IMG/VR virus record: IMGVR_UViG_3300021964_000052
Span: 1,258 to 65,257 of that record
Length of the DNA: 64,000 nucleotides
From: a virus
Taxonomy: Duplodnaviria > Caudoviricetes
Direction: 5' to 3' (one strand)
Shown here: in pieces, positions 1,152 to 62,373 of the stretch
Position numbering within the stretch: the stretch's first letter is position 1
How the letters are laid out: the number at the start of each line of letters is the position of its first letter
Made by a program: the position numbers and the translations under genes
Notes under the pieces: model-generated
Databases searched by the model: none
Seen by the model: only the letters and a program-made list of their open reading frames with translations
Told to the model about the DNA's origin: nothing

Positions 1152-2071
1152 AGATCTAATTTATGCACCATTAGACTAGAAAGGTCTAATTCATGTGCTG
1201 ATTGGATTAATTTTGTAAACGGTATAAAACCCATTTCGGAAGGATCTTTATCCGGTAACTCAATTAAAAAAACTCTCTTACCTTGATTTAAAAATTGTTC
1301 TGATATTTTTAACGCTTTACTTCTAGCGTCGGTGTCTAAAGCAATATAAATATCTTTTACATTACTTGTTATAATCTTTTTATATAATGAAGTAGAGATA
1401 CTCTTTCCCAGTATAGGTATAGCATTTCTACGTATAGCAATAGCATCAAACACTCCTTCACATAGTATTATAGGAGTATCCCAGTTAATTAAATTTTCAA
1501 AAAATATTACGTCTTTGGAAGTTTCGGGATTTTTGTATTTAAAATAGTTTCCATCATAGCTTCTCGCAACAAAAAAGTTGAGTTGATTGGATTCAGAATA
1601 ACTTGGGATAATAACTCTTCCTCCAAATTCTCCAGAAGTGCAATATCCAATCCTATATTTAATAAAATCATTATCGGTAAGTCCTCTTTCATATAAGTAT
1701 TTTCTTACTAAATTAGCTATAACTGAAGTTGTTGAAGCACTGTATAACGGTTGATACTCTTTAGGTAACTCTACTACTGATATTCCTTTGTAGTTTATTT
1801 GAGCTCCTTTAGGTAGGTATTTTAATATTTCGCTAGCTTGTTCTCTAGGAGTTTTCAACTGCCTAAGTAAAGATCTTATTGTTCTACCTTTTGTTTCACA
1901 CACCCAACACTCCCAGAAGTTCTTACCTTCTTCGGTTGTATGCATATTGATCTCTAGCTTAGGTTTACGGTGATTACAAAAAGGACAATGAAAAGCATAG
2001 TTATCTCTAGCTTTTTTATGGCTTTTGCCTAAAATATTTTCAATTGATCCTAAAAGGAAAGTATAGTCCAT
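1148..2071 (-). CDS. DNA primase (Zn finger + TOPRIM)
   Basis: CPFC...CWVC zinc finger, YLYERG, ILCEGVFDA, ALDTDA, KDPSE. Confidence 0.92.
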   Translation of the reverse strand: MDYTFLLGSIENILGKSHKKARDNYAFHCPFCNHRKPKLEINMHTTEEGKNFWECWVCETKGRTIRSLLRQLKTPREQASEILKYLPKGAQINYKGISVVELPKEYQPLYSASTTSVIANLVRKYLYERGLTDNDFIKYRIGYCTSGEFGGRVIIPSYSESNQLNFFVARSYDGNYFKYKNPETSKDVIFFENLINWDTPIILCEGVFDAIAIRRNAIPILGKSISTSLYKKIITSNVKDIYIALDTDARSKALKISEQFLNQGKRVFLIELPDKDPSEMGFIPFTKLIQSAHELDLSSLMVHKLDL

Positions 2072-2090
2072 AAACCAGTCCGTATCTTAA

Positions 2091-2125
2091 CTATAAGATA
2101 AGAACTTTAATTCAATTATGCAACT
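2091..2125 (-). promoter_or_regulatory. Putative early/host-sigma promoter for primase
   Basis: AGTTG-N20-TATCTTATAG, same spacing as 12 other copies. Confidence 0.7.
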
Positions 2126-2127
2126 AT

Positions 2128-2316
2128 CTAAGAGATTAATTCGCCGATGGCTTCTTTTACTACTGTTTCCAGAAGTGCTTTATTCTCTATATCCAGATAG
2201 TTATCTAACTTATTAGCTATAGTTTCTGCTAAATTAGTTATATCTTTATCAGATAAGTTTAGCTCAGCTCTATGAATAATTTTATTATTCTCTAATATGA
2301 TTTTTGATAACTTCAT
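2128..2316 (-). CDS. Small hypothetical protein with MKLSKIILE N-terminus
   Basis: ORF track; tightly packed; shared N-terminal motif. Confidence 0.75.
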   Translation of the reverse strand: MKLSKIILENNKIIHRAELNLSDKDITNLAETIANKLDNYLDIENKALLETVVKEAIGELIS

Positions 2317-2317
2317 A

Positions 2318-2590
2318 CTAATTGTTTTGTTTTATGATCCTTACTATTTCTCCTCTATCATCATCATCTACATGGAACACTTCATAGTCACCTAATTTAT
2401 GTCCATGATATTTATTACCAAAATCCAATAAATCTTGTTGAGTACCTCTTACATCTATTCTTCTATGCTCACTACCGGGAAACTTTAAATCAAAAGATAA
2501 ATTAGGAAATTTTTCTGCAAATTTATTTGCAAGATTAATTAGATAAACATCTTCCTTGTCTTCTGATAAAATAATGTTAGATAGCTTCAT
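2318..2590 (-). CDS. Small hypothetical protein with MKLSNIILSE N-terminus
   Basis: ORF track; shared N-terminal motif. Confidence 0.75.
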   Translation of the reverse strand: MKLSNIILSEDKEDVYLINLANKFAEKFPNLSFDLKFPGSEHRRIDVRGTQQDLLDFGNKYHGHKLGDYEVFHVDDDDRGEIVRIIKQNN

Positions 2591-2777
2591 TTCTTTTAAG
2601 TAGTTCTCTTATTATTAAATTCTTCTTTTTTCTAAAAGTATTAGTAGTATACATCTTTTTTAATTCTTCTGTAGATGTTCCAGAAGGAGTGTAGTGTTTC
2701 CATTTGTACTTATTAGTCATTCTACCTCTAGAATCTCTTTCGTATTCTTTAGTGCTTGGTTTTAATTTAGCTGGCAT
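2577..2777 (-). CDS. Small basic hypothetical protein
   Basis: ORF track; overlaps both neighbours in operon fashion. Confidence 0.7.
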   Translation of the reverse strand: MPAKLKPSTKEYERDSRGRMTNKYKWKHYTPSGTSTEELKKMYTTNTFRKKKNLIIRELLKRNEAI

Positions 2778-3093
2778 TACAAGTACAGTTTTTACAGTTA
2801 CATTCCATTTTTTTAATTACTTTTACTTTAAGATCACCTGTTCCTTTTATAAGCCGGTGATATGTTTGCTTTGGTATAAATAGTTCGGTTTCGGTAAGGT
2901 AGCGAGGAATATCGTTGTCCAATTGAAATTTCCAGTCTGTTTTATGGAGAGCTTGAACTATACGGTCTTCTTTGTCTCTATGCCATACTAATTCAAATGA
3001 AGAAGTTTCTTGCGAAAACTTTCTAACTACATAACCTTTTTTCTCTGTTTCAGAGTAAGGTCTACCAGTAACCTGAGAAATTTGATCCACCAC
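2767..3093 (-). CDS. Cupin-like small protein
   Basis: VWHRDKEDR...FIPKQTYHRLIKG pattern resembles a cupin barrel. Confidence 0.55.
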   Translation of the reverse strand: MVDQISQVTGRPYSETEKKGYVVRKFSQETSSFELVWHRDKEDRIVQALHKTDWKFQLDNDIPRYLTETELFIPKQTYHRLIKGTGDLKVKVIKKMECNCKNCTCNAS

Positions 3094-3850
3094 CTAATGA
3101 TTTCCAGTAACGGCCAATATTACATGACCAGTATCCTGCTTTTGTTTTATCTTTTTTCTGTGCACATTTATGACGTGCAGCAAATGATGCTCTTGCACCC
3201 TTCTTTTTAAATTTAACTGAAAGCCCAGTATCCCCAAATGAGACCTTTTTGACATTACCTGTCTTAGGGTTTTTAACATAAACGTAGAATTTTTTAGAAC
3301 CACCTCTTTTAGGTTTATTTAATTGAACCTTTTTACCCTTGTACTCCGCTTCGGGGATGTAGTCCACTGAGGCCTTCAGCATTTCGAATCCATTGTAATC
3401 GAAATTTTCGTTATTTATACTAACTGCTTTTCTGAATTTATTCATATTAATGTTACCGCCAATCGACTCTACTAATTCTTTTACTAGTTCAAAATCTATC
3501 ATTTCGTCTATTGATGCAGCTTCATCTATCTTATTCTCGTCTTCTATCATTTCATCGATTAAACATCCAATCTCAAATATAGCATTATACTTTGGTGACA
3601 CCATAGGTAAGTCTAAAGGTACTTTCATACCGTTATACTCTGCATATTCTCCTATATCAGTTGTTTCTAATAGTTCTTTATCTTCTTCGTTTAAATCTAT
3701 ATCTTCGTTTCTAAGGGCTTCTCTTGCTTCAGCAAATAAGTTAACAAAGGCATCGCTAGAATAACGGTAGACATGTTCGTGTAATGTTAGACCATTGTCT
3801 AAATGGTACTTTAAAGATGGATATCCAACTACTTCTTTAAGTTTAATCAT
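3062..3850 (-). CDS. Hypothetical protein, acidic N-half and basic C-terminal domain
   Basis: C-terminal KKFYVYVKNPKTGNVKKVSFGD...FAARHKC...AGYWSC. Confidence 0.8.
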   Translation of the reverse strand: MIKLKEVVGYPSLKYHLDNGLTLHEHVYRYSSDAFVNLFAEAREALRNEDIDLNEEDKELLETTDIGEYAEYNGMKVPLDLPMVSPKYNAIFEIGCLIDEMIEDENKIDEAASIDEMIDFELVKELVESIGGNINMNKFRKAVSINNENFDYNGFEMLKASVDYIPEAEYKGKKVQLNKPKRGGSKKFYVYVKNPKTGNVKKVSFGDTGLSVKFKKKGARASFAARHKCAQKKDKTKAGYWSCNIGRYWKSLGGGSNFSGYW

Positions 3851-3853
3851 AAT

Positions 3854-4273
3854 TTATTTATTATCGTTACGTTCTTGCCATTCTAAAGATACGGAATCTT
3901 TTTCAATCGGACCACCTTTTGCCCATGTTCTGCAGCTTCTAGCTGAATGACATTTGAAGTGATGCATCCAACAGTAACCTAGTCTACCGTCTTCATCAGA
4001 GGTAACTCCAGGCATACATTCATCCATTCTAGGTGAAATATCAAATGCTACACAATTACTACAATTAGAGGCTTTAGCTGCTTCTAAAGATGTATTCCAA
4101 TATTTAGCTATATCTTTCCAGTAACTACCAGGTTTATCTACATTCAATGGTCCATACTGTACATGAGTTGCTTTAATTGAAGCATCTCTATTCTTAGTAT
4201 TAAGCATTAAATCCTGTGTTGCTACAGGGCAAGATTTATTATTTTCTTTTAAGATTATATCTCTTAACTTCAT
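3854..4273 (-). CDS. Cys-rich putative metal-binding protein (MKLRDIILKE N-terminus)
   Basis: CSNCVAF...YCWMHHFKCHSARSCRTW. Confidence 0.7.
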   Translation of the reverse strand: MKLRDIILKENNKSCPVATQDLMLNTKNRDASIKATHVQYGPLNVDKPGSYWKDIAKYWNTSLEAAKASNCSNCVAFDISPRMDECMPGVTSDEDGRLGYCWMHHFKCHSARSCRTWAKGGPIEKDSVSLEWQERNDNK

Positions 4274-4731
4274 ATATTGAAATCTTTTCTATAAAATTTA
4301 GCGAGAATGTTATCATTAATGTATTCATTATGCTCTAACACCTCTTTTATAAATAGGTATTTGCATTCAAAATATGTTAATTGCTTCTTATTCGGTACAT
4401 AACAGAGTATTTCCCTAGTAAATTCACTCTGTTTACCTTCTTTGATTAATTTTAAGATATCTTTATGAGAACCGTAATAAGTCATCCAATCTGATTCTGT
4501 AATGACTTTTTGTTTAAGTGGAACTCTTCCTCCTATACCTTTTGCTCTTCTTTCTTCCCTTAAAGCTTCTAAGGCTCTTTTACCTAATCTTTTATTTCGT
4601 TCAAAATATAAAACCTTCTTTCCAATATACTTTTTACCAGAAGGTTGATGTATAGACATATAGATAAAACCATATGTATCTTTAGGCATATCCCCTATGC
4701 TCTTTATTTCTTTACCATTAAATTTCCACAT
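4270..4731 (-). CDS. GIY-YIG-like nuclease domain protein
   Basis: YGFIY...GKKYIGKK, YYGS, FTREIL, YINDNI. Confidence 0.65.
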   Translation of the reverse strand: MWKFNGKEIKSIGDMPKDTYGFIYMSIHQPSGKKYIGKKVLYFERNKRLGKRALEALREERRAKGIGGRVPLKQKVITESDWMTYYGSHKDILKLIKEGKQSEFTREILCYVPNKKQLTYFECKYLFIKEVLEHNEYINDNILAKFYRKDFNI

Positions 4732-5279
4732 TATCCTAAATAAAACCCTGAAATTTGTAACGTATATTTATCTTTCATACCTGCATTTGCTGATAGATGT
4801 AAAGGTTTAGATGACCATAAGTAACCCTCTCCTGCTTTCCAATTATCAGATGTTTTCCAAGCATTTAGATCATTTATGTCTTGATACTGTAGCATATGTC
4901 CTACTTTCCAATCTTCTAAATAAATGTTTGCTCTTACTTTTAATCTTTTATCATCAGGGAATCTTTTATTAATTTGAAAAAAAGTATCTCTATGCAGAGC
5001 GATAGTATTGCCAGGTGGCTGTAAAATAGATGATATAGTTATTACTTCCATGTTTAATTGTTTACCTAACCCGTCAAAATCAACTATAGAGTTATCATAC
5101 CACAATTGCTGTATGACAGTATTTTCTGAGGTGTAAGTCTCTCCTAAACCATATTCTTTATGAATATCAGTTAGCTCATGTACCTGATGAGATAGGCATG
5201 TTCCTTTATGAACAGAGTAATCTTGGTTTGGGGGTAAGAAATAATTTAAGTCGTAATCTATTTTTATTTTTCGTAACAT
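4731..5279 (-). CDS. 2OG-Fe(II)/cupin-type oxygenase
   Basis: PPGNTIALHRD...H(LSANAG)...YTLQISG HxD...H triad. Confidence 0.65.
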   Translation of the reverse strand: MLRKIKIDYDLNYFLPPNQDYSVHKGTCLSHQVHELTDIHKEYGLGETYTSENTVIQQLWYDNSIVDFDGLGKQLNMEVITISSILQPPGNTIALHRDTFFQINKRFPDDKRLKVRANIYLEDWKVGHMLQYQDINDLNAWKTSDNWKAGEGYLWSSKPLHLSANAGMKDKYTLQISGFYLG

Positions 5280-5284
5280 TTTAT

Positions 5285-5293
5285 TATAAATAG
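5285..5293 (-). promoter_or_regulatory. Putative late promoter (CTATTTATA)
   Basis: Occupies the short intergenic gap before 4731..5279. Confidence 0.5.
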
Positions 5294-6859
5294 TTATTTT
5301 TTAATATAATAATCTTCTAAAAGTACTCCATCTAATTTCGTGTTATTTAATATCGAGATAGCATCTTTATAAGTATTTAGAATAGGTTTACCTGCAATAT
5401 TAAAAGAAGTATTAAGTAACATACCAATGCCAGTTTTCTCTTCCACCATTGATAAAAGTTCGTATAGGAACGGATTTTGCTGAGAAGTAACTGTCTGTAT
5501 CCTTGCTGTTCCGTCTATATGAGTTATGGATTCTAAAGTTTCCCTATACTCCTCTTTTACTTTTGGGCAAAAAGACATATACCTAGATTCTCCATTAAAT
5601 TCGAAATACTTACTCACGTCTTTTAATCTTACAACAGGAGCGAAAGGCCTATAATATTCTCTATTCTTAACTTTTTTATTTAAAGTTTCTTTCATTCCTT
5701 TAATAACCGGGTAACATACAATACTTCTATTTCCTAGAGCTCTTGGACCTATTTCACATCTTCCTTTTACTATACCGATAATTTTACCAGAGACTATATC
5801 ATCCACAACCGTATTAATATTTACCTCTGCTTTATAAGTAGAAGCATATTCAGATAAAATATCTCTATCCCAGGCTTCAGGTCCTAAATAGGGACTACTA
5901 ACTGCTTGAGTTGGCTTAATATGAGATAGCATAAAACCTAATGATAAACCAGAATCGTTAGGATTAGGAGGAATAAATGTTTTTACTTTAGTATTAATGC
6001 TAGTATTATTTAAAATATTTAATGCACAACCTCCGGAAATAATAAAGTTATTATTTATTTGTTGAAATATAGTAGAAATATTTCGTTCAAAAATATTTTC
6101 AAATACATATTGAGATGTAGCTACTAAGTCTTTTTCTAACTCTCCTGATAGTATATCTGGTAGTTTAAGTTTGAGTTTCAATTCTTTGTAGTTATTGTCT
6201 CTATTCTCCTTATCCATGTGATGACCTAAATAAAACTCCTCTAAGGCCTCAACGTAATGTTCTTGCACTTTTCCGTAACCTGCTAGCCCCATTAACTTAC
6301 CAGCATAGATTAAGTAAGCATCACGCCATTCTTTAGCTTTTCGTATTGAGTTACAATAACGTCCAATTTCAGCATATTTTTCTCCTATATTATAATCAAA
6401 ATTTTTACCTATAGGTTCTATACCTTTAACTCTATCTGCTTTATAGAAATTATAACATCCGTCATTTCCTCCTCCGTCTACCGTGGCAATTATAGCAGTG
6501 TCCAATTCTGATTGATAGAACGCTCCAGCAGCATGTCCGTCTTGATGGTATACTTCTTTCAATTTATTAGCTTTAAAAAATTGAACTATTTTGTTTTTAT
6601 TTCCTAATTTGGTAGTTAGTGTTCTTGTATCATCTTGATTACAGATTAAATAATCAAACTTATCAGCTCTATATTTAAAATTAAAATATTTTAATATATT
6701 CTGTATTGCTTTTAGAGGAAGGTGGGTAGGGTAGTACCACAGTAAACCAGCATTCTTTATATTGGTAAATCTTTCTATCTCTACGACTTCGAGAACTATA
6801 CCATCTCTAGCTAAAGTAATAGATGCGTTATGACCACAGTATATAGATAAATCAAACAT
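5294..6859 (-). CDS. Carbamoyltransferase, NodU/CmcH family
   Basis: HNAS, ERF, HxxHAAxAF, DGGG, GKLMGLAGYG, GGCALN, GPRALGNRS, RPFAP, HIDGTARIQTV, LLNTSFN. Confidence 0.93.
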   Translation of the reverse strand: MFDLSIYCGHNASITLARDGIVLEVVEIERFTNIKNAGLLWYYPTHLPLKAIQNILKYFNFKYRADKFDYLICNQDDTRTLTTKLGNKNKIVQFFKANKLKEVYHQDGHAAGAFYQSELDTAIIATVDGGGNDGCYNFYKADRVKGIEPIGKNFDYNIGEKYAEIGRYCNSIRKAKEWRDAYLIYAGKLMGLAGYGKVQEHYVEALEEFYLGHHMDKENRDNNYKELKLKLKLPDILSGELEKDLVATSQYVFENIFERNISTIFQQINNNFIISGGCALNILNNTSINTKVKTFIPPNPNDSGLSLGFMLSHIKPTQAVSSPYLGPEAWDRDILSEYASTYKAEVNINTVVDDIVSGKIIGIVKGRCEIGPRALGNRSIVCYPVIKGMKETLNKKVKNREYYRPFAPVVRLKDVSKYFEFNGESRYMSFCPKVKEEYRETLESITHIDGTARIQTVTSQQNPFLYELLSMVEEKTGIGMLLNTSFNIAGKPILNTYKDAISILNNTKLDGVLLEDYYIKK

Positions 6860-7781
6860 AATTAACTTTTTGATTTTTTATATCTATATTAGCAAACCTT
6901 TCATATTCTTCTAGTGTTCTAATATTACCTACTCCGTATTTGCCTAAATCATCTCCCATAATTAACTTCTTTAATCTTTTCATAGCCACTCTATGGTGAT
7001 TATCAGCTATAGTTTTTTCATTATTATTAAAATGTTTTTTAGGTACTTGAGGATGAGCACGGTGCCACGCTACTATTTGACTAGGAGTATAAAAGTCATA
7101 TCCAAAAGTATAAGATCTAATTGCTAAAGCAAATTCTTCTCCAGTATAGTAATGCAAAGGATCTTGTTCTACTTCTTGTACCCATTTACCGGCTGTAAAT
7201 ATAAATCCTCCGTATATTAAGGTTATACCTTTAGGTTTAAATTCTATATCAATCTGATTATTATATCCTCCATAATCAGGCCAAAAATCCTTAGAAATAA
7301 ATTTTATTTTAGGTACCTGTAAAATAGATAAATTTTCTTTTTGTTTAAATTCTAAATCTTTATTTAATTTATCGTCTCTTGTATATGCAGGAGGTAAAAA
7401 GGAAAGCAGTGGTTTTTTAATACCCTTACCTAGTAAATTATTATAGTCTTTAATTATTATTTTATCCCAGTCTTGTATAAACCTTGTATGAGAATCTACC
7501 TGTAAGGAGTAAGTTTCATAATTATAGTTTAACTGTGCTAATTGTCTAGCCCAACACCCTCCTTTAGATTCTGTATAATGATACTTATCAACTGTAATAT
7601 TATACTTCTCTACTAAATCGTCTAGACACTTCTCTGATGTTCCTATCTTATCGTCATATTGTAAGCAAACAGAAAAATATAAATTACCTGGGTTATATGA
7701 TTTATTAATACAATCTAATATTGTATATTTAATTTCGTAATCAAGATAACTTGCTATTGATATGAAAATAGTTTGATTCAT
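6852..7781 (-). CDS. GT60-like (Skp1 hydroxyproline GlcNAc-transferase type) glycosyltransferase
   Basis: TIFISIASYLD, GGCWAR, LQVDSHTRF..WD, GGFIF, YTGEE...RSYTFGYD. Confidence 0.8.
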   Translation of the reverse strand: MNQTIFISIASYLDYEIKYTILDCINKSYNPGNLYFSVCLQYDDKIGTSEKCLDDLVEKYNITVDKYHYTESKGGCWARQLAQLNYNYETYSLQVDSHTRFIQDWDKIIIKDYNNLLGKGIKKPLLSFLPPAYTRDDKLNKDLEFKQKENLSILQVPKIKFISKDFWPDYGGYNNQIDIEFKPKGITLIYGGFIFTAGKWVQEVEQDPLHYYTGEEFALAIRSYTFGYDFYTPSQIVAWHRAHPQVPKKHFNNNEKTIADNHHRVAMKRLKKLIMGDDLGKYGVGNIRTLEEYERFANIDIKNQKVNYV

Positions 7782-10510
7782 CTTCTTAACTTTATTTCAA
7801 AATACTTTTCTAAATCTTCTAAACTTCTTTCATAACCTTCTTTAAATAATTCTTCGTTTAATAACTTACTTGAAGAGTCCTTAATTAAATATTCATTATT
7901 ATGTTCTCTGTAAGGGATATCAGAAGAAGTTTTAAAATTATAATTATGCCATATACAAGCTTCAGAGCATACTTTTAAATTCCATCCTTTTAAAAAACTA
8001 ATAAATGTTTGAAAATCTTCTTCACCGTTGAATCTAATATTATCTGGTATGTTTACCTCTTTTACCCAATCGCTGTTAGTAAATAAAAATCCTGCTGCTG
8101 CCCATTTAGTATCAAATGGTTTATTATCTTTCCATGAATCAAAGTTTTCCGCTACACATCTATTATCAGTTTCAGAATCTTTTACTAAAAACCTTTTAAC
8201 CTTTAGCGGTGCATTAAATGGTAAATTGAGATAATCTTCTCCTATATCAGGTACATCAAAATTATTAGGGTACGTAGTTAAAATAGCTTTCGGATCATCT
8301 AAAGATTTATATTGACTCAGTAATATAAGGTCCCAGTTTCTTTTAAATCTAGTATGAGAATCTACTTGTAAGAAATATTTCTCATCCTGTATTTCTTTTT
8401 TAATTTTATTTCTAGCTACAACAACACCTTTTGATTGTTCCTTAGGAGTGTATAATATAGTAAGGTCATTATATTTTAACTCTAAAACCTTATTTAATTG
8501 TTCTATAGTATCCTGTAGGTTAACGCACACTACCACTTTACTACTGTCTGAAATATTATTATAAAGGCTTTTTAATGTGTCTATAATTTGACTATCACAG
8601 TAACTTGCTATAGAAACAAATATTTTAGAGTTATCATATTCCCATGCATCTCTATACTCTCTTGCCCAATTAGCTATAAATCCTCTATCTACTTTAAAAC
8701 TAGTTTGATCTTCTTCTTTGAACTGTTCAGTATTCACTATAAAAGTTTTATCTTCTATATCGTTCATCAAACCTCTCATCCTATAAACATAGGAGGATAA
8801 AGTTGAAAGTTTATTACCGATAAATTTTATAGCTCTACTACAAATTAACTGTTCAATTATTGGTATCCAATTATTATTAAATTCTAAATGATTAAGTTTA
8901 GATTTTAAATCATTATAGAATATAACGTTATAATGCTCTTTTATTAATTTAAAAAACTTTTCATCTTGATGATCTGTGGCAATGTAGAGTGTGCCTTGTT
9001 TAGGTATTATATTTTGAATATTAATGAGAAGTTCTTCTGCGGTAATAAACAAGTCTTTGTACTGAAAATCATTTCTTCTTAGATGTAGCGAATAGTAATT
9101 CTTATCCCCTAGTAAATTTATAAAAGCCCATCCTATATCGAATATTTCATTTCTATACCTTACTGTTTTATTTATGAGTGTTTTTAAACTATCTTCATGT
9201 TTAGTAAAAAAAGTAGAATAAAAATTACCTAGTAGATTTCTATCAAAATATAAGTACCTATCATTTTCACTTATTAAATCTTTAATATTAAGTACCTCTC
9301 TCTTTTTTGTAAAACTGGTAGGTGGTTCTAAAGGTTCAAAATTATAAACACAATTATCAGTCTTTATATTTATTTCCTTACATTTACTTTTAATATTATC
9401 GAAACTATCAAAGATGTGTTCAATATCTCGAAACTCTTCGTATTTAATAATTTTAATTTGTTTATTACTAAAATCAAAAAAATCATTCAATCCACAGTAA
9501 TTTTCTAAAAGATAGTAAGAGCTATTTGGAGGTAAGACTAAAGTTCTATTTAATAAAAAAGCTATACATAAAGCTAATTCATACGACATTCTAATATTAT
9601 TAAACCCTCCAGGCCATTCTTTATAAAGTACGTATCCTTCTTCTCCGTTATAAAACTTGAAAATATTTCCATCATCAATACCTTTATAATATCTAAAATC
9701 AGTATTTTTTTGATCTATATTAGATAGAAGAAAAGTATCCAAAGTATTTCTAGCCTTTGATATATCTATTTTCTGCTCTAAGTCAAATGTATGATCTTGT
9801 TTAAAGAAGATTTGATTACCTTCTTTATCCTCAATTTTATTAGGGTAGTGAATAATACTGGGAAGAGTTCTACTATCATTGTGTTCCCATACGCTACATA
9901 TTCCTAACCTATCTAAAAATTTTATATCAATATTATTAGATTTAAAAGCATAATCTAAGCCAAACATTTCTGCTTCCCATTTTTTAGTATTAACTCTATA
10001 GTCTATACAAGCCTGTTTATAAGAATCAATAATTTTTTTAAGAGTAAAGAAATTTAAAGCAAAAGGATACATAATTCCTTTTTTACCGGTAGGATAATTA
10101 TCATTAGGCCTGTTAAAATCTTTCCATCTTTGACCAATTACTTCATTATTAGATAAATTAAAATCTACTGATTGCAAAAATATCATGTCAGGGTCCAAAA
10201 AAAGTATTTTATCTGTATCTATTAAATCTAAATTTTCACATAGCCAAGAAATAGATTCGTACTTATTAGGTATTCCGCCCCACCAGTCTTTATTTTTTAA
10301 TTCCCATTCTTTTGCCCAATCAGGTAGTTCTATAACTTTAGTATTTTTACTAAAATTAAAATCTATTTTTTCGTTTTTATGATTGATATCCTCTGAGAGA
10401 AGTATAGTAAGTTGACCTGTTTGGTTTACATTCTCAAAAGATCGTTCTAGATATTCAAGTTGCCATTTTTGGTAAAGGCACTTGCTTGTACTCACTACTA
10501 CATAGTCCAT
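7778..10510 (-). CDS. Three-domain glycosyltransferase: GT95/GT96-like + O-fucosyltransferase-like + GT60-like
   Basis: N: YQKWQ, GQLTILLS, PNK..SWL, LDPDMIF, WEAEMFG; middle: GGFNNIR, NRTLVLPP, HLRRNDF, LYIATD, EQLICS, STLS; C: IFVSIASY, LQVDSHTRF, AAGFLF, FNGEE. Confidence 0.8.
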   Translation of the reverse strand: MDYVVVSTSKCLYQKWQLEYLERSFENVNQTGQLTILLSEDINHKNEKIDFNFSKNTKVIELPDWAKEWELKNKDWWGGIPNKYESISWLCENLDLIDTDKILFLDPDMIFLQSVDFNLSNNEVIGQRWKDFNRPNDNYPTGKKGIMYPFALNFFTLKKIIDSYKQACIDYRVNTKKWEAEMFGLDYAFKSNNIDIKFLDRLGICSVWEHNDSRTLPSIIHYPNKIEDKEGNQIFFKQDHTFDLEQKIDISKARNTLDTFLLSNIDQKNTDFRYYKGIDDGNIFKFYNGEEGYVLYKEWPGGFNNIRMSYELALCIAFLLNRTLVLPPNSSYYLLENYCGLNDFFDFSNKQIKIIKYEEFRDIEHIFDSFDNIKSKCKEINIKTDNCVYNFEPLEPPTSFTKKREVLNIKDLISENDRYLYFDRNLLGNFYSTFFTKHEDSLKTLINKTVRYRNEIFDIGWAFINLLGDKNYYSLHLRRNDFQYKDLFITAEELLINIQNIIPKQGTLYIATDHQDEKFFKLIKEHYNVIFYNDLKSKLNHLEFNNNWIPIIEQLICSRAIKFIGNKLSTLSSYVYRMRGLMNDIEDKTFIVNTEQFKEEDQTSFKVDRGFIANWAREYRDAWEYDNSKIFVSIASYCDSQIIDTLKSLYNNISDSSKVVVCVNLQDTIEQLNKVLELKYNDLTILYTPKEQSKGVVVARNKIKKEIQDEKYFLQVDSHTRFKRNWDLILLSQYKSLDDPKAILTTYPNNFDVPDIGEDYLNLPFNAPLKVKRFLVKDSETDNRCVAENFDSWKDNKPFDTKWAAAGFLFTNSDWVKEVNIPDNIRFNGEEDFQTFISFLKGWNLKVCSEACIWHNYNFKTSSDIPYREHNNEYLIKDSSSKLLNEELFKEGYERSLEDLEKYFEIKLRR

Positions 10511-11757
10511 TATACACTAGTAAGTTTATAGTCATTAAGTTTGTAATGTACGTAAAAGTTACGGTACCAGTTACCTTTAAACTCTTCTTGTCTACCGTGT
10601 AAACAGGTAGCAGATTCATATAAAATAATATCTCCTATTTCAGCATATATTTTATGCCACTTCCCGCTATGGTCTTGAAAGTCAAGAGGCCAGTCATTTT
10701 TTGCTCCTTTAGTATCTTTACAGTCACAATTAAGATCTTTATCTACTATTATGATACTTGAAACATGATGTGTTTCTAACCTATCGGTATGATTGATAAG
10801 CGTAGCACCTTTATTATAGGATCTTATCCCATATAACATAGTTGGTGATAAAGATTCACCTGAGAACTCTTCATGTAGCGGTTTAAGCTGATTATGTATA
10901 ATTTCTCTTATAGAAGTAAGATTATCAAAACTCATAATCTCTGTTCTATTATCTCCAGGAGTTATTACATTATCTATACCTTCCCACTTTTCTTCTGCTT
11001 TGCTATTTTTTAAAAGACTGTAAGCATCCTTTATAATTTGCCATGTATCCTCCGGGCACTTGACTATCTTATATCCTTTTTTAGTTAGTCTAGGAAAATC
11101 ATCTACACCCGTAAAAGATTTACTATTTAAACTAACAACCTTACCTTTTCCTGTGGATTTACGTTTATCTAATTCTAATTTGAGGCGAGTATCTTCAGAA
11201 GGTTTCCATTCATTTTCTCTCCACCATGAAGTTATAATATATTTTTTACCTTCTGTAACAGGTGTGCCTTCGTGCATTGATTGGTGATTAACTTTTCCGT
11301 CAATCATATTATCCCATCTCAACGCTCTTCCAGTTTTAGGTTTAAATTTTATACCTAAATTAGTAAAATCCGTCTCTCCTCCTACCATATCTTCATTTAG
11401 ATAAATCATAAGGGTCTTAACTCTATTACCTGAAAAAAGGCAATGAGTTTTATAAGCCTCGGGGGAAAAATAATCTGTATGAGGTTTAAAATACTCTCCT
11501 GGTTGGTATAACTGGCCCTGTAGAGTTTCTCCTCTTTTAATATCTAACCCTACATACTTAGCTATTTTTTCTTTTAATGCTTTAACTTTATCATCCTCTT
11601 CTGATAGCTGAGAAGTACTAGAAGTCCTATAATCATTAATCTCAGAAAACTTATCATTAGCAGTAGTAACTGCAGATCTAGAATGTTTTTTATCTATTAA
11701 ACTAATAAAGTATTCACATTCTTCTTTTGTAAGAAAATTTTCAGCGTATTTAACCAT
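10510..11757 (-). CDS. Prolyl 4-hydroxylase with a second 2OG-Fe(II) oxygenase domain
   Basis: FLTKEEC, RTSST, LQGQLYQPGEYFKPHTDYF, RVKTLMIYLN...GGETDF, HEGTPVTEGKKY; second domain GIRSY..GATLINHTDR...HGR. Confidence 0.88.
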   Translation of the reverse strand: MVKYAENFLTKEECEYFISLIDKKHSRSAVTTANDKFSEINDYRTSSTSQLSEEDDKVKALKEKIAKYVGLDIKRGETLQGQLYQPGEYFKPHTDYFSPEAYKTHCLFSGNRVKTLMIYLNEDMVGGETDFTNLGIKFKPKTGRALRWDNMIDGKVNHQSMHEGTPVTEGKKYIITSWWRENEWKPSEDTRLKLELDKRKSTGKGKVVSLNSKSFTGVDDFPRLTKKGYKIVKCPEDTWQIIKDAYSLLKNSKAEEKWEGIDNVITPGDNRTEIMSFDNLTSIREIIHNQLKPLHEEFSGESLSPTMLYGIRSYNKGATLINHTDRLETHHVSSIIIVDKDLNCDCKDTKGAKNDWPLDFQDHSGKWHKIYAEIGDIILYESATCLHGRQEEFKGNWYRNFYVHYKLNDYKLTSV

Positions 11758-11770
11758 AACTTACTTTAGT

Positions 11771-11803
11771 ATAATATATGAAATTAATATTTAATTTCCA
11801 ACT
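11771..11803 (-). promoter_or_regulatory. Putative early/host-sigma promoter for the P4H-GT operon
   Basis: AGTTG-N20-TATATTAT fills the gap between the repeat protein and the P4H gene. Confidence 0.7.
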
Positions 11804-11804
11804 T

Positions 11805-13361
11805 TTACGGTTCCCCAGGTACACCAGGAGGTCCAGGAGGTCCAGGAGGTCCAGGAGGTCCAATACTAGGTGCTGGAGTCGGGGCAGGTGTTGGACTAGG
11901 TGTCGGAGCAGGTGTTGGACAATTTGCTGCAGGATTAACTGGTACAGCATCTGTTGTATTAATTCTATATTCAAATAACCTAGATTTAGAACCATCCGAT
12001 AAATAGAATAGATCACCGTCTCCATAATTTAAACCTATCCATAAACCTTCTACTGTGGTTACATTAGAACTATCGAACGTAGTTGCTCCATATATAAATG
12101 TAGTGTTGTTAGTATTACCTGAACAAGCATTACCAGCTGATGTACTATGAGCAAGTGATTGAGTTCCGCTTACTACTGGAGCTGGAGTAGGAGCAGGTGT
12201 TGGTGCCGGAGTAGGTGCTGGTGTTACTGGTGCTGGTGTAGGTGCCGGAGTTGGACTAGGTGTAGGACTAGGCGTTGGTGCCGGTGTAGGTGCTGGTGTT
12301 GGTGCAACAGGAGCAGGTGTCGGACTAGGAGTAGGTGCCGGAGTAGGAGCAGGTGTTGGACATGCTACTGCTGCTTGTTGTGGAGTTGCACCACTAGAAG
12401 CCTTTTTAAATTGTCTAGTATCAGTTCCATCAGATACCCAGAATATAGTATTTGTAGCGTATCCTCCTATTGTTATACTATCTATCGATGTAACACTAGA
12501 CCCAGCAAATGTTGTATCATCATAAATTATTGTACCGTAAGCTGTATTGTCATCTCCTCCGCTACATGCATCGTCAGCGTCACTAGTTGAGTAGTATAAA
12601 TCTTCATTACCTGTTACTATAGGAGCTGGAGTAGGAGCAGGTGTTGGTGCCGGAGTAGGAGCAGGTGTTACTGGTGCCGGAGTAGGAGCAGGTGTTGGTG
12701 CTGGAGTAGGAGCAGGTGTTGGTGCCGGAGTAGGTGCCGGAGTAGGTGCCGGAGTAGGTGCTGGAGTCGGGGCAACAGGTGCCGGAGTTGGAGCAGGTGT
12801 CGGGCTAGGTGTTGGTGCCGGAGTAGGAGCAGGTGTTGGAGCAGGTGTTGGACTAGGAGTAGGACAAGTAACTGATGAAGCTTGTGGTGTACCGTACTGA
12901 CTAGTTTTAGCAAATTCTCTACTATCTGTACCATCTGATACCCAGAATGTAGTACTGGCTGCATATCCTCCGGTTTTTATACTGTCTATATAAGTTACAT
13001 TAGCACTAGTAAATGCTGTTGCTCCTGCTATGTAAGTACTATATGCAAGTCCGTCGTCTCCTCCACTACAAGCATCATTTCCAGATGTAGTAGAATAGTA
13101 TAAAGATTGATTATTATTAACTATAGGGGCTGGAGTAGGAGCAGGTGTTGGAGCTGGTGTTGGAGCTGGTGTTGGAGCTATTGGTGCTGGTGTAGGTGCT
13201 GGAGTTGGAGCTCCTAAACCGTAAAATTCATCCATTGAATCAGGAGAGGTCAACCCGAAAGCTAATGATGCAGAAGTAAGATTTAGTTCAGCTTGAGTAC
13301 TATTTCCTAATTCATCATTAAGATCCTCGAATGATATAGGTCCTGACGACTGTATTGCCAT
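11805..13361 (-). CDS. Pro/Thr/Ala-rich (PTPA)n virion protein with three Cys-flanked domains and C-terminal GPP repeats
   Basis: N-terminal [19 protein letters not shown]...SMDEFYG module; four PTPA tracts; three AC...SDG...C domains; directly follows the tail fibre gene. Confidence 0.85.
11808..11861 (-). repeat. Collagen-like (GPP)4-GVP-GEP tract
   Basis: aggaggtcc x4 tandem on the plus strand. Confidence 0.9.
12178..12360 (-). repeat. 12-nt period coding repeat, PTPA tract 3
   Basis: ggagtaggtgcc-type degenerate tandem repeats. Confidence 0.9.
12621..12863 (-). repeat. 12-nt period coding repeat, PTPA tract 2 (longest)
   Basis: About 20 PTPA-like units. Confidence 0.9.
13125..13211 (-). 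repeat. 12-nt period coding repeat, PTPA tract 1
   Basis: ggagctggtgtt-type units. Confidence 0.9.
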
Positions 13362-13363
13362 AA

Positions 13364-16300
13364 CTAGTCTTTTAATTTATTCTCTAACTCTTCTACTTTA
13401 CTTGATAATTCTTTTACTGCTTCAATTAATACTGCTGTTAGTTTATCATATTTAACGCCTAAATACCCTCCGTGCATTTCTCCTACAACTTCAGGAAGTA
13501 CGTGTTTAACGTCTTGTGCTACAACTCCTATATCATGACCTTTAAATGTATGTACATTTTCATTTCCAGCTTTCCAATCGAAGTATACTCCTCTTAATTT
13601 ATGAATTTTTTCTAAAGGACTATTAATAATTTTAATATTTTCTTTTAATCTATTATCAGATGAAGCAAATGCTGTAATATTTCCTGTTGCTGTTATCGCA
13701 CCTCCTACCTCTAACTGTGCACCAGTTGTCGTAACTGGCATCTTAACATATTTAGAAGTAGCTGAGATTACCTGCATACCGCCGGCTGTTATCTCTGAAA
13801 ATTCTAACGCTGTACCAGCAGCAGCTGAAACCGTTACTGCGGAACATATTGGAGGTCTATAATCAACCGATAAAACGTTAAGTCCTCCTCCACCATTTGA
13901 AGCATAAGCTGAGATAACAATACTTTTTATAAAAGTTCTCACACTATAAGATGCTCCTAGCTGTAGAGTTACGCCGTTGAAGTTAATATCTAGATTTCCA
14001 GTATCTAGAGTTATAACTTCATCTCCTGATCCTGAGTTACCAAAATTATATAGTTTGGTTTGTATAGTAGAAATAGAACCTTGATAATTTTTACGTAGTT
14101 CTGCTCCTACAGTTATACCTACAGTATGAGATACAGATCCATTTCCGTAAGGATCGTAGGGGCTAAATTCTGATTCAATGTAATGTGAAGTTAATTGAGG
14201 ATTTATAGTAGCAGAAAAAGAAGCATTAACATTATCATAAGCAGATGTTACTGCTGATGATGAAGGAGGTGTAGTATCACTGTTATATAAAGGACCACTA
14301 AAGTTAAAAGTAACATATCCTGAAGTAGAGTTACTAAATCCAGTTCCGTTATTTGTATTACTGATAGTTCCTGTCATAGTTAAAGGAGCTCCAGTATTAG
14401 TTGCAGATAACGAAGTGTTTCTATTTATTCTAACTCTAGCATCACTACCAGAGTAAATTGTTATAGAGGGTGCATCTCCTGCGACTATTTCTATAGAGTC
14501 GTTACCGTCAGAACCAGTAGCAACTAATTCATTTCCTGTAACTGTAAATCCTGCTATAGTACCTCCAGATGCATTAATAGTTCCTTCAATATTAGCATCT
14601 GTCGCCAGTACTGAACCATCGGCAGCAACTGCGAATTTAGGATTTGCAGTATTCGGGACTGTTATTGTAGAACCTACGATAGAACCACTTACACTTAATG
14701 ATGAACCGTCAAACTCTACAAAGTTATTTGCAGTACCTGCTTTAAAACTTCCATCAGCAAACCATTTGTTGTTTGCATTGAGGTATAATCCGTCGTCTGA
14801 GCCACTTACATTAGATCCGAAATAAAAATTATTAGCATTTAATTTACCGGATAGATTAATATTACCTGAGAATGTACCGGCTGTTGCTGTTATATTCCCA
14901 GTTATGGTTGCACTAGTAGCAGTTAATGCTCCTGCTTTAGTAACCTGGAATTCTGCACTACCTTGTGTAGCATGACCAATCCACATATCTCCATCTGATG
15001 CAACTCTAAATATGTCATTTCCTGAACCTATACTTAAACTACCACCAGTAATAGAAGGAGCAGAAAAAGATCCTCCACTTAAGGTCATATTCTCAGCATT
15101 TATATTACCAGCAAAGTATCCTTCTGAAGCTGATATTATCCCGTCTACAATTAATTCTGATTCAGATGCATCCCAGGCTAAACCTCCAGTTGATCCACTT
15201 AAATAGAAATCTCCATTACTAGCCATGTAAGTTGCCCAGTGGGAGGCTGAATGGAATCCTAAATAATTACTTCCTATATATAGTCCAGGAGTAGAAGAAG
15301 GTATTGCAGCCTTTACAACACTACCTGAAACATTAGTAAATGTTCTATTATCTAAATTAGTAACATCAGTAGTTAAGTTATTAATATTACTTGTATTAGT
15401 AGAAGCACTTGCGGTAGCTTGATTTGCTGTGCTTTGTGCATCATTTATCGCATCGTAAGTGGCACCTGAGCTAATAACTATAGAACCGGCTATATCGGCA
15501 TTAGATGCTGTTAAGTTTCCTTCTGCATCTACATTAAAATTACTTCCGATAGCTATGGTACCCCCAGTAATTGCTCCTTTAAACGTCGCTCCACTGTTGT
15601 CTATTACAAACTCTGTACTATGTATTGAACCTGCTTTTGCAAAAGTTATACCGCTAGTGGTAAACCCGCTAGTATCTTTTGCAGAACCTGAGCTAAATAT
15701 GGCATCACTGTCGATATTCCATCCACCAATCGTACCGTCTGTAGCAGTAATAGTACCGTTAATAGTTGCATTAGTAGCTGTTAATGCTCCTGCTGGTGTA
15801 ACTCTAAAAGGTGCTGATGTAAATGTGGCATGCCCTAGAGAGATACCGTTGTTATTTGCTTTAAATATATTATTTGAAGTAGTTCCAATTTCAATAGTAG
15901 AACCAGAAATTAACCCTCTAAATGTAGCATCACCGTCGGAAGCTATTTTAAATTGTTTTGCTCCGATAAACCCTGCTCCTAATGTTATCTGTCCATCTGA
16001 AGAAGCAAATGTATCATCGGCAAGTTCTGTACCTCTATAAATGGCGTTTGAGTCGATTGTCCATCCTCCGACTGATCCTTTTGTTTTAACTAAAGTTTCA
16101 GGGGCGATATGAACTCTATCAACTATTATTTCGTTGGTACCTGCTCCGGTCCAATTTAGTATAATAGGAGAGGCATAAACAGCTGATTCGGTTGGTGTAT
16201 AGTAAAATAAGTATTCAGTAAATGAAGTACCTAAACCAATATCATCTAAATCTAATGCAGCTCCATTTGAAGCTGTTGCAAAGGATGAGATTTGTCTTGT

Positions 16301-61083: not shown

Positions 61084-62373
61084 CTATAATTTTTCTAATT
61101 TAGGTAATTTTAAATTTGGTATATTAAGCTGTACCTGTTTAGGTAACTCAGGAATATGAGTATCAATTAACTTTCCTAATAACTTAGTCATACTATCAAA
61201 GGAAAAGTTTTTAATATTCTGACTTCCTTGTTTCTTTGCTCTAACTAATAAATCTTTATAATTCTTATGTACTACTTTTAATCCTTGATGAGCATCATTT
61301 TCGTTAGCTGTAAACCATTTTGATTCTTCTAGTAACATATCTTTCATAACAGCACTGGGATGAAGCTTTTCTAATTTTCCACCAACCATTAAACAAAGTT
61401 CTCTATCTAAAAAATCTGTATGCCCAGACCATGCTGAGGCTATAATAGGTTTTTTAATTAATGAAAACTCTAATAACGGTCTACCAAATCCTTCACCTCT
61501 TGTTAAGCTAATCATAGATTTAACTTTAGGATGATTATATAGCATATTAATTTCAGCATCATCCATTTCACCGTGTATTAAATATATGTTAGGTAGTGTA
61601 CCTTTTACTAACTTTCTAATGCTTTCTATCTTTTTAAGTATAGCTTCTCTATCTAATATGGAACTATTAGCAGTTTGAGTTTTTAATATTAAAGCAGGTC
61701 TTTTACCTTTAGGTTTATTTTTAAATGTTTCTAAAAACACTCTTATCATTAACCCTACATTTTTTCTATCTTGACCATAATCTCCTTGGAGCCAATGACC
61801 TACAAATAGAAAACAAAATGATTCTTTAATATAAGAAAGGTCTAAAGTATTATCTTTTTGAGATATAATTTTATACTTAGATAAATCTGCTCCTTCAAAT
61901 AAAACCTCTACTGGTTTTTCTAACTTAATTTGTTTCTGTACCTGTCCTGTCTGTTTATTCTCTACTCTAAAAGCAGTAGTCTCAAATACTTTTTTGGAAT
62001 GTTCTGAAGAAGTTAGTATTAGGTTCATTCTATTACAACCTTCTATCCAAGAAGAATGACACATAGTAGTTTCTATTCCGGCTGTAACGCCAATATTAAA
62101 CTTACCTACCGGTTGAAATTCGTTTGGGACTGTAACCTGTATCCATATATCTGGTTTACTATTAAGGTTAGGTATTACTCTACTCTTTAGGTCATGTTCA
62201 TTATGATCTTCTAAATAACCAAATCTAGTATTACCCCATCTTTGAGATAATATTTTTATATCCCATTCACTATCTTTTAACTGTATAAGACTCTTAACAA
62301 AGTCTCTAGCTCTAGCTCCGTAACCACTATACGTATCAATAGGACAACTTACTATACATGTATTTTTACTCAT
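61084..62373 (-). CDS. GT4 glycosyltransferase
   Basis: SGYG..AR, RKN, RGEGFGRPLLE...PII.S.WSG..DF. Confidence 0.9.
   Translation of the reverse strand: MSKNTCIVSCPIDTYSGYGARARDFVKSLIQLKDSEWDIKILSQRWGNTRFGYLEDHNEHDLKSRVIPNLNSKPDIWIQVTVPNEFQPVGKFNIGVTAGIETTMCHSSWIEGCNRMNLILTSSEHSKKVFETTAFRVENKQTGQVQKQIKLEKPVEVLFEGADLSKYKIISQKDNTLDLSYIKESFCFLFVGHWLQGDYGQDRKNVGLMIRVFLETFKNKPKGKRPALILKTQTANSSILDREAILKKIESIRKLVKGTLPNIYLIHGEMDDAEINMLYNHPKVKSMISLTRGEGFGRPLLEFSLIKKPIIASAWSGHTDFLDRELCLMVGGKLEKLHPSAVMKDMLLEESKWFTANENDAHQGLKVVHKNYKDLLVRAKKQGSQNIKNFSFDSMTKLLGKLIDTHIPELPKQVQLNIPNLKLPKLEKL

Follow-up and report, generated by a model that had tools for sequence, protein, structure and literature searches.

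Why a tailed phage should carry, directly behind the gene for its long tail fibre, a protein that resembles plant extensins, and next to it enzymes resembling those that hydroxylate and glycosylate extensins, is the question raised by the locus described here. The locus lies in a stretch of 64,000 nucleotides (nt) from IMG/VR record IMGVR_UViG_3300021964_000052 (positions 1,258 to 65,257); this whole stretch is referred to below as the window. It comprises the genes of a 518-amino-acid (aa) Pro/Thr/Ala-rich protein, a double 2-oxoglutarate/Fe(II) (2OG-Fe(II)) oxygenase, a triple glycosyltransferase, a GT60-like glycosyltransferase, and a NodU/CmcH-type carbamoyltransferase, hereafter the cassette [Table 1]. 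From our comparison of loci, a Pro-rich gene followed by a double hydroxylase and then by exchangeable glycosyltransferases is a conserved module across many phage lineages. The enzymes of the cassette probably modify this or similar Pro-rich phage proteins; that the sugars are attached to hydroxyproline (Hyp) is quite possible, although we hold it short of probable.

We collected loci from IMG/VR with three anchors, namely the oxygenase (best 80 of at least 205 stretches, giving 57 dereplicated loci), the GT60-like gene (best 80 of at least 368, giving 53) and, as a tail-fibre-matched control, the S74-type fibre end (best 80 of 406, queried with a four-sequence alignment, giving 79), and scored as Pro-rich any open reading frame (ORF) in which a stretch of 30 aa contains 12 Pro or more. 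A Pro-rich ORF was found in 48 of the 57 oxygenase-anchored loci, 24 of the 53 GT60-anchored loci, and 3 of the 79 control loci (Fisher p = 8.6e-24 and 6.8e-9, respectively, against the control), counts that are inflated by related lineages as dereplication was by shared DNA words only. The density of such ORFs per 100 kb was 10.7, 3.8, and 0.37 in the same order. The Pro-rich ORF was within three genes of the oxygenase in 44/57 loci and directly upstream of it in 40/57, and five of the nine loci without one are contigs of 4-6 kb; in the GT60-anchored loci it was one or two genes from an enzyme gene in 23 of the 24 cases. A glycosyltransferase was present within four genes downstream of the oxygenase in 54/57 loci and as the immediate next gene in 44/57. 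The co-occurrence of hydroxylase and transferase genes with Pro-rich genes across phage genomes, which the initial annotation had put forward as one of its checks, is thus observed (48/57 against 3/79).

The transferases themselves are exchangeable. An HPAT-like domain was the only type in 18 of the 57 oxygenase-anchored loci, followed by O-FucT with GT60 (11), PF04488 of GT32 type (9), O-FucT only (6), GT32 with GT60 (5), HPAT with O-FucT and GT60 (4), and GT60 only (1), while three loci had no transferase. The carbamoyltransferase was present in 14/57 and an epimerase in 10/57; related cassettes add NAD epimerase/dehydratases, a PF03407 (GT77-type) transferase, a NodZ/FUT8-like enzyme, GT4-like genes, and a second carbamoyltransferase. 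The Pro-rich neighbours of different lineages are unrelated proteins that have P-[T/V/S/P/A] tracts alone in common; over 2316 tract positions in 73 Pro-rich ORFs, the residue after Pro was T in 36%, V in 18%, S in 17%, P in 13%, and A in 9%. The arrangement may also extend to cells. Among bacterial genome records we found four loci with a full-length double oxygenase, and a Pro-rich ORF was directly upstream in two of the four. One of these two loci is that of the isolate Colwellia echini A3, where the neighbour directly upstream (L369:5806-7557) is a 583-aa secreted protein containing two (TP)n linkers; the oxygenase homologue behind it has 481 aa and is 33-35% identical to that of the window. 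The Pro-rich/oxygenase pairing may therefore also serve cellular PT-linker exoproteins. A scan of IMG/VR for DNA coding for (P-[T/A/S])8 returned at least 120 stretches, and a GT60-like gene was present in the retrieved sequence of 3 of these 120, which we consider anecdotal.

The source record has 65,257 bases (CheckV completeness 40%, G+C ~31%), of which the window is nearly the whole. The genes upstream of the cassette have PHROG matches to tail-fibre and baseplate-wedge families, and a 390-aa protein of the structural region has 42% identity to one encoded by the 160-kb Flavobacterium myophage vB_FspM_immuto; no near-identical DNA was found among 50,697 deposited phage records. The phage appears to be an uncultured, estuarine, myophage-like virus, and its host, judging from the 42% identity to immuto, is probably a member of the Flavobacteriia. 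All genes of the cassette region are on the minus strand, including the five ORFs whose positions and lengths had been given correctly in the initial annotation. The enzyme genes had there been described as four overlapping genes directly after the Pro-rich gene; the enzyme junctions do overlap, start codon over stop codon (oxygenase/910-aa gene by 1 nt, 910-aa/309-aa by 4 nt, and 309-aa/521-aa by 8 nt), but the Pro-rich gene and the oxygenase gene are separated by a gap of 47 nt. Only 2 nt lie between the stop of the fibre gene and the start of the Pro-rich gene. No intrinsic-terminator-like site was found on either strand in the 12.5 kb from 2000 to 14500, where 4.7 +/- 2.6 were expected from shuffles, and such a stretch is compatible with co-transcription of the cassette and the fibre genes. 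Promoter-like sites in the same interval were at chance level (58 against 58.8). As none of the cassette proteins contains a hydrophobic segment (maximum 19-residue Kyte-Doolittle mean 1.47), the enzymes would act in the cytoplasm.

Table 1. Positions of the cassette, its neighbours, the domains of its proteins, and the related features in other loci (window coordinates unless a locus is named).
Feature	Position	Strand	Remark
Long tail fibre, 2608 aa	13364-21190	-	S74-type self-cleaving chaperone at C-terminal ~100 residues
Pro/Thr/Ala-rich protein, 518 aa	11805-13361	-	candidate substrate
N-terminal module, ~50 aa	13212-13361	-	MA.Q..G.IS..D...E....L....SEFYG
P-[T/A/S] tracts (four)	13119-13211, 12615-12863, 12171-12359, 11862-11918	-	residue positions
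Cys-bounded domains (three, ~85 aa)	12864-13118, 12360-12614, 11919-12170	-	alignment of copies
Collagen-like tail (GPP)4-GVP-GEP	11808-11861	-	perfect 9-nt repeat
Double 2OG-Fe(II) oxygenase, 415 aa	10510-11757	-	PF13640
Oxygenase N-domain, residues 1-190	11188-11757	-	prolyl 4-hydroxylase type
Oxygenase C-domain, residues 215-415	10513-11115	-	second complete oxygenase
Triple glycosyltransferase, 910 aa	7778-10510	-	PF10250, PF11397, HPAT/SGT-like N-domain
HPAT/SGT-like domain, residues 1-290	9641-10510	-	family profile
O-FucT-like domain, residues 293-581	8768-9634	-	PF10250
GT60-like domain, residues 620-910	7781-8653	-	PF11397
GT60-like glycosyltransferase, 309 aa	6852-7781	-	PF11397
NodU/CmcH-type carbamoyltransferase, 521 aa	5294-6859	-	PF16861, PF02543
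Protein without known family, 182 aa	4731-5279	-	cupin-like HxD...H pattern
SegE-like GIY-YIG homing endonuclease, 153 aa	4270-4731	-	PF19835, E 2e-24
N-terminal module in other loci	L207:10303-10482, L224:10287-10451, L230:2330-2494		
Pro-rich ORF of L019, L020, L022, L023	near 4150-6180		
Distant GT60-like clade (L032-L035, L038, L040, L042, L045, L050-L061, L070, L074-L081)	around 10001-13700 of each		

Of the 77 non-overlapping ORFs in the window, none but that of the 518-aa protein (21% Pro, 16% Thr, and 14% Ala) is Pro-rich. Behind its N-terminal module, four P-[T/A/S] tracts (residues 51-81, 167-249, 335-397, and 482-500) alternate with three Cys-bounded domains and lead to the (GPP)4 tail, giving an architecture of 'beads on a string'. 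The tracts together make up 196 residues (93 Pro, 43 Thr, 41 Ala, and 7 Ser) and their prolines are nearly all in a T-P-A or A-P-T context; the residue counts, the tract coordinates, and the (GPP)4GVPGEP end confirm the four long tracts and the GPP tail noted at first. In analyses with TRF, the DNA of the PTPA tracts was degenerate (65-79% matches), which is indicative of a repeat maintained in the protein rather than in the DNA. The DNA of the GPP tail was a perfect repeat (9 nt x 4.3 copies with 100% matches, 11824-11862). No such tail was found in the Pro-rich neighbours of the other sampled lineages, and the GPP tail was for this reason rejected as the conserved target of the oxygenase. 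We also rejected the possibility that the Pro-rich frame is a wrong-frame artefact, as only the 518-aa frame spans both the tracts and three homologous domains.

The Cys-bounded domains are homologous to one another, copies 2 and 3 being 56% and 39% identical to the first, with two Cys each. The 518-aa protein matches no family of Pfam or PHROG, and a search of 1.84 billion representatives with a profile of the Cys-bounded domain found only 4 relatives, of which the three of full length are likewise PT-linker 'beads on a string' proteins. The predicted fold of one such domain, from a 3-row alignment, was poor (pLDDT 65). The N-terminal module recurs more widely. In L207 and L224, two unrelated control loci, the ORF immediately following the S74-type fibre gene begins with this module (MALQSSG.IS..DI..E.....SEFYG), the ORFs being otherwise unrelated; a further ORF, in L230, and protein P0167 begin with it as well. 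This suggests the module as a candidate adaptor that attaches varied payloads to S74 fibres, or co-assembles them with such fibres. In the window's own fibre, the C-terminal 200 aa resemble the S74-type ends of other fibres, with the SDNRLKE motif of the S74-type domain beginning at residue 2511; a complex prediction with three copies of fibre residues 2290-2510 and three N-terminal modules gave a score of 0.01, which weighs neither for nor against docking.

The oxygenase was found to be a prolyl 4-hydroxylase (P4H) relative by sequence as well as by predicted fold, as had been supposed from the outset. It carries PF13640 (E 2.2e-14, 54.6 bits against a cut-off of 27) and matches eight distinct P4Hs among PDB sequences with E from 1e-24 to 3e-12 (e.g., B. 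anthracis 5iax, 1e-24; human C-P4H alpha-2 7zsc, 1e-20; Chlamydomonas 2jig, 1e-14; and PBCV-1 5c5t, 3e-12). Its AlphaFold model has a pLDDT of 77, with the loops 28-44 and 92-109 poor (pLDDT < 50), and in the Foldseek comparison that had been proposed for it, ranks 1-11 were all P4Hs (TM by target 0.64-0.75), the best being 3gze, the algal (Chlamydomonas) P4H-1 with a (Ser-Pro)5 peptide (E 8.5e-14, TM by target 0.75). Over seven homologues that are 46-57% identical, H93, D95, H162, and K172 of the N-domain and H323, D325, H387, and R399 of the C-domain are invariant. Judged by these matches, the N-half is a relative of the collagen/plant-type prolyl 4-hydroxylases, with the double-stranded beta-helix fold and the iron triad present. 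The Atlas puts the C-domain among phage and bacterial clusters without a family. As a single-protein query of IMG/VR, the oxygenase returned no close relative, and an alignment was needed as the query.

A P4H need not act on the neighbouring gene product. The third Foldseek match, PDB 5v7y, is by its title a B. anthracis P4H modifying elongation factor Tu, and Foldseek also lists the Rps23 double-barrel hydroxylases Tpa1 and OGFOD1. The oxygenase could accordingly be directed at a host translation factor, or the transferases and the carbamoyltransferase at envelope glycans for takeover or superinfection exclusion, with the Pro-rich genes as mere neighbours. The PHROGs category of these families ('moron, auxiliary metabolic gene and host takeover') would agree with this, as would the epimerases and GT4-like genes of related cassettes, which occur in polysaccharide pathways too, and the L006 group, in which the block follows ribonucleotide reductase genes and not fibre genes. 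In that very group, however, Pro-rich genes still come after the block, outside a fibre module, and with Pro-rich ORFs in only 3 of 79 control loci, co-location in the fibre region cannot explain the 40 of 57 directly upstream of the oxygenase. The (TP)n-linker protein directly upstream of the Colwellia echini double oxygenase speaks in the same sense, and to our knowledge each transferase family in the cassette is one that uses proteins as acceptors. We therefore regard host targets as improbable, and modification of the Pro-rich proteins themselves as the better account of the module.

The 910-aa protein had been described as a glycosyltransferase of three domains, and two of these are matched directly, by PF10250 (E 5e-27, 95.8 bits against a cut-off of 31.5, model positions 1-325 of 326) and by PF11397 (E 1.5e-32, 113.9 bits against a cut-off of 21). 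The O-FucT-like domain has a weak PDB match to POFUT2 (E 1.1e-3); since PF10250 also includes plant enzymes that use other donors, fucose as the donor is only a guess. The third domain, residues 1-290, belongs with the HPAT family through a profile, the direct Pfam match being absent even at E 10. The profile, built from 10 homologues of this N-domain, gave 43 matches, of which 26 carry PF23452 (HPAT), which presumably corresponds to CAZy GT95/GT96; the matches included relatives 37-39% identical to the window's N-domain (E 1e-68 to 5e-108), and four were named by their source as peptidyl serine alpha-galactosyltransferase (E 1.5e-10 to 5e-4). The Atlas lead to the HPAT family stood at 0.94, and the HPAT-carrying Atlas clusters are viral and bacterial. 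A DPD motif (D106, D108) is invariant in the 10 homologues. A direct PF23452 search of the whole record gave no match, and control genomes were likewise unmatched. We accordingly file the domain as HPAT/SGT-like, short of a proven member.

The 309-aa protein is, as first proposed, GT60-like (PF11397, E 2.6e-47, 162.5 bits against a cut-off of 21), PF11397, a family built around Gnt1, being what we take to be CAZy GT60. It has 193 relatives, and among the matches listed 120/120 carry PF11397; D96-x-H98, within LQxDSHTRF, is invariant in 22 homologues and is of the metal-binding DxH/DxD type that we take as defining for the family. A profile of the GT60-like family found no match among PDB sequences. 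Against deposited phages, tblastn of the 309-aa protein found only four jumbo Xanthomonas/Stenotrophomonas phages (26-28% identity), and as a single query of IMG/VR it found one close relative, in the truncated locus L002. The 521-aa protein carries both domains of the NodU/CmcH carbamoyltransferases to which it had been assigned, PF16861 (E 3.5e-62, 209.4 bits against a cut-off of 27) and PF02543 (E 8e-20, 71.9 bits against a cut-off of 24), and belongs to phrog_1601 (E 4e-118). The NCBIfam NodU equivalog scored 155.9 bits against a cut-off of 1000, and by its domains the protein is a member of the NodU/CmcH family but not NodU itself. An NCBIfam PspA match was dismissed as spurious and due to low complexity.

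Several observations besides the inflation of the counts weigh against the view that all these transferases serve hydroxyproline. Of 15 dereplicated loci with the triple transferase, 13 have the oxygenase, and the two lineages without it (L017 and the group L018-L023) keep the triple transferase, the GT60-like gene, and a Pro/Thr/Ser-rich neighbour, with an epimerase in the place of the oxygenase; PF13640 was absent from the whole of the L023 record (166.6 kb, CheckV 89%). Among the GT60-anchored loci without an HPAT-like domain, none of 38 has an oxygenase and 14 have a Pro-rich neighbour, mostly with (TP)n linkers. A distant GT60-like clade (~400 aa, 31-37% identity), in whose loci there is no oxygenase, is found one or two genes from a conserved, Cys-rich protein (~535 aa) that contains several (TP)n linkers and is often also beside a collagen-like ORF or another (TP)n protein. 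Conversely, in the nearest oxygenase-bearing lineage (L003/L289, L287, and L291-L293) an S74 fibre gene is directly upstream of the oxygenase, with Pro-rich genes 7-8 genes off or none seen on the contig, and L016 has no Pro-rich ORF in a record of 41 kb; in its sister L014, an (APTT)n protein is four genes past the carbamoyltransferase. The link of the 910-aa N-domain to HPAT is indirect, and the best direct PF23452 match of a relative, the 277-aa ORF of L313, stayed below the cut-off (E 5.5e-4, 19.8 against 23.9 bits). The identity of the neighbour as substrate, the formation of Hyp and its glycosylation, the sugars, the target of carbamoylation, and incorporation into the virion are all read from association and homology.

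Because there are transferases in loci that have no oxygenase, some of them must work without Hyp, presumably on Thr/Ser, and the oxygenase-free loci fit glycosylation of Thr/Ser at least as well as that of Hyp. It is conceivable that the same holds throughout, that is, that the transferases glycosylate only the Thr/Ser of the tracts in the manner of mucins, and that Hyp stays unglycosylated and stiffens the polyproline-II helix or stabilises a GPP triple helix. The 14 of 38 GT60-like loci and the 89%-complete L023 record, whose retained neighbour is TPS-rich, argue for it, and so do the relatives of PF23452 named as peptidyl serine alpha-galactosyltransferases and the predominance of Thr after Pro. 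GT60 also includes Thr-directed polypeptide GlcNAc-transferases of trypanosomes and Dictyostelium. Yet a transferase follows the oxygenase in 54 of 57 loci and the lone HPAT-like type is the commonest, a pairing that a two-step Hyp pathway predicts, and the GPP tail, being unique to the window's protein, cannot explain why the oxygenase is conserved. On balance, glycosylation confined to Thr/Ser seems to us unlikely, although it is the alternative to be taken most seriously.

In natural populations, the 8-kb stretch was found in 20 DNA runs, which come from 11 metagenome studies of estuaries and the sea (2018-2025), a run being counted when at least half of the sampled words of the stretch were present; two of the runs are maybe the source sample. 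No RNA run was among the listed sequencing runs bearing the stretch, which again does not favour our reading. In contigs from four runs of four studies, the enzyme genes were recovered in kb-long pieces with ~1% differences (e.g., 63 differences in 5345 bases and 37 in 2992 bases). The pieces over the Pro-rich gene were short, with gaps of 30 and 12 letters, both multiples of three. Apparent 'joints' inside the repeat tracts at 85% likeness were set aside as most likely mis-joins of repeats or other organisms. In the near-identical loci L019, L020, L022, and L023, the enzyme genes score identically and the Pro-rich ORF has 678, 668, 586, and 688 aa; the 678-, 668-, and 688-aa forms are distinguished by how many PVTPS units they contain, and the 586-aa form ends in a different C-terminal sequence. 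Since the tract gaps and the ORF lengths vary beside enzyme genes that are ~99% alike, the tracts are length-variable and the enzymes conserved.

This conservation bears on whether the block has a function in protein modification at all. Phage transferases are used for DNA glycosylation, and a gene for a GIY-YIG SegE-like endonuclease, two genes downstream, suggests a mobile island; the transferases might thus modify phage DNA bases, or the block might be a decaying passenger island without function. Either is very improbable in our judgement, as the catalytic residues are invariant across homologues that are only 46-57% identical, the enzyme genes are intact and ~99% conserved in the runs of four studies, and the cassette ORFs have neither frameshifts nor internal stops. 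In addition, we know of none of these families that acts on DNA.

What the cassette may do can then be put together as follows. The most far-reaching version of our reading, offered tentatively and with something less than an even chance in its favour, is that a genuine Hyp O-glycosylation pathway operates in the cytoplasm of marine, estuarine, and freshwater bacteria infected by tailed phages, in which a double hydroxylase acting on the P-[T/S/A/V] repeats of fibre-associated phage proteins is followed by HPAT/GT60/GT32/O-FucT-type enzymes, the product being carbamoylated in the present phage, and which gives extensin/mucin-like fibres of the virion. In the more general scheme, which we hold probable, the 518-aa protein would be made in the host cytoplasm with the late tail-fibre genes. 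The P4H domain would hydroxylate prolines of the P-[T/A/S] tracts, possibly also of the GPP tail, with another position or residue as the possible target of the second oxygenase domain. O-glycans would be started on Hyp and/or on neighbouring Thr/Ser by the HPAT/SGT-like and GT60-like domains, while the O-FucT-like and the second GT60-like enzymes would extend these glycans or start others. NodU-type enzymes carbamoylate sugars, and the carbamoyltransferase would cap a sugar hydroxyl. The O-glycosylated PT linkers of secreted glycoside hydrolases are extended and protease-resistant; the product here would be stiff, protease-resistant, mucin/extensin-like polyproline-II spacers, which would keep at a distance from the fibre the three small Cys-bounded domains, whose role is probably in binding.

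Several of these elements have counterparts in known systems. In the hydroxyproline-rich glycoprotein pathway of plants and green algae, P4H is followed by HPAT (GT95) and SGT1/SERGT1 (GT96), and the glycans are extended by GT77 arabinosyltransferases. The phage cassette has in common with it the structural P4H family (best fold match Chlamydomonas P4H-1), an HPAT/SGT-family domain, a substrate-like protein with dipeptide Pro repeats, and, in a related cassette, a PF03407 (GT77-type) gene. The phage enzymes, however, are soluble and without a membrane anchor, in the bacterial cytoplasm rather than the Golgi; the repeats are PTPA/PTPS and not Ser-Pro4; the transferases are fused (910 aa), with a second oxygenase domain and a carbamoyltransferase added; and the candidate substrate and the putative enzymes are in one operon-like array. 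In the Skp1 pathway of Dictyostelium/Toxoplasma, the P4H PhyA is followed by Gnt1 (GT60, adding GlcNAc to Hyp) and then by further cytoplasmic transferases. Soluble cytoplasmic P4H and GT60-type enzymes and multi-domain follow-on transferases are shared features, whereas the phage P4H is of collagen/plant type (the Dictyostelium PHD-type 6t8m was only at fold rank 44, E 2e-7) and its putative target is a long repeat with ~90 candidate prolines as opposed to one proline of one protein.

Among viruses, the P4H of chlorovirus PBCV-1 (vCPH) presumably acts on Pro-rich repeats of the virus itself. It is virus-encoded and of the same family (5c5t, fold E 1.6e-11), but belongs to a eukaryotic virus and not to a tailed phage related to Flavobacterium phages, and the phage P4H is linked gene-to-gene with a candidate substrate and HPAT/GT60-type transferases. 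We also count the giant-virus glycosylation of collagen-like and fibril proteins among the closest known systems. BclA, the collagen-like exosporium protein of Bacillus anthracis with glycans on Thr, is a bacterial-world, O-glycosylated surface filament, although in the phage protein only six C-terminal triplets, and not the tracts, are collagen-like; among solved structures it is the B. anthracis P4H (5iax) to which the oxygenase is closest in sequence, and we know of no established link between BclA and that P4H. Virion glycosylation in mycobacteriophages reportedly involves other transferase families, no prolyl hydroxylase, and capsid and tail-tube extensions as targets. It has in common with what we propose that a tailed phage's own transferases glycosylate its own structural proteins in the host cytoplasm; the families here are P4H, HPAT, GT60, and O-FucT, and the candidate target is a Pro-rich, fibre-associated protein. 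Two putative transferases and capsid glycosylation are named in one abstract (PMC11256854).

A search of the open full-text literature (subscription journals lie outside it) found no phage or bacterial P4H-plus-transferase system or Hyp glycosylation, no phage HPAT, and no phage GT60, in keeping with the initial impression that such a cassette had not been described in a bacteriophage. It had also been called eukaryote-like; the Pro-rich gene/hydroxylase/transferase module does recur, but 'eukaryote-like' denotes only where the families were first characterised, as the HPAT clusters of the Atlas are viral and bacterial. What is new is the host domain and the arrangement of known enzyme families, virus-encoded modification of a virus's own structural proteins being known already. 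Hyp-based O-glycosylation is regarded as a hallmark of plants, algae, and some protists. If the far-reaching version of our reading is true, Hyp-linked glycosylation of proteins would for the first time be found beyond eukaryotes and their giant viruses, namely in bacteriophages, encoded with its substrate in a compact array, and would point to a prokaryotic/viral reservoir, or origin, for the HPAT/SGT and GT60 families. Phage virions would then carry glycoprotein stalks instead of bare protein, which would bear on the adhesion of aquatic phages to hosts, particles, and mucus and on protease resistance, and the soluble P4H and HPAT/SGT-, GT60-, and O-FucT-type enzymes, compatible with the bacterial cytoplasm, would be of use for glyco-engineering. 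Even without the chemistry, the rule of a Pro-rich gene, a double hydroxylase, and a transferase annotates hundreds of unannotated genes of viral metagenomes.

A few further observations concern the surroundings of the cassette and its relatives. The 182-aa protein past the carbamoyltransferase had no Pfam, PHROG, or NCBIfam match; its homologues occur in L002, L003, and L015 and in 12 of the 57 oxygenase-anchored loci, and LHRDTFF...LHLS, with the cupin-like pattern, is invariant in 14 homologues, so that it may be a third oxygenase. The SegE-like endonuclease gene comes next, two genes past the carbamoyltransferase, and a 153-aa ORF is at the same place in L002; ORFs of 153 aa, matched by length only, also come after the cassette in L005, L010, and L063. 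The cassette may be mobile as a homing-endonuclease-associated island. In L299, a 266-aa ORF (L299:2981-3781) three genes past the oxygenase has the C-terminal domain of the crAss-phage muzzle (PF25729, E 5e-22), and a gene context of 243, 306, and ~1650-2100 aa is common to many oxygenase-anchored loci; because of these two features, part of the oxygenase family is probably in crAss-like phages. Far from the cassette, at 61084-63821 on the minus strand, the window holds two more adjoining glycosyltransferase genes (429 and 481 aa; phrog_2170, E 6e-17 and 9e-21).

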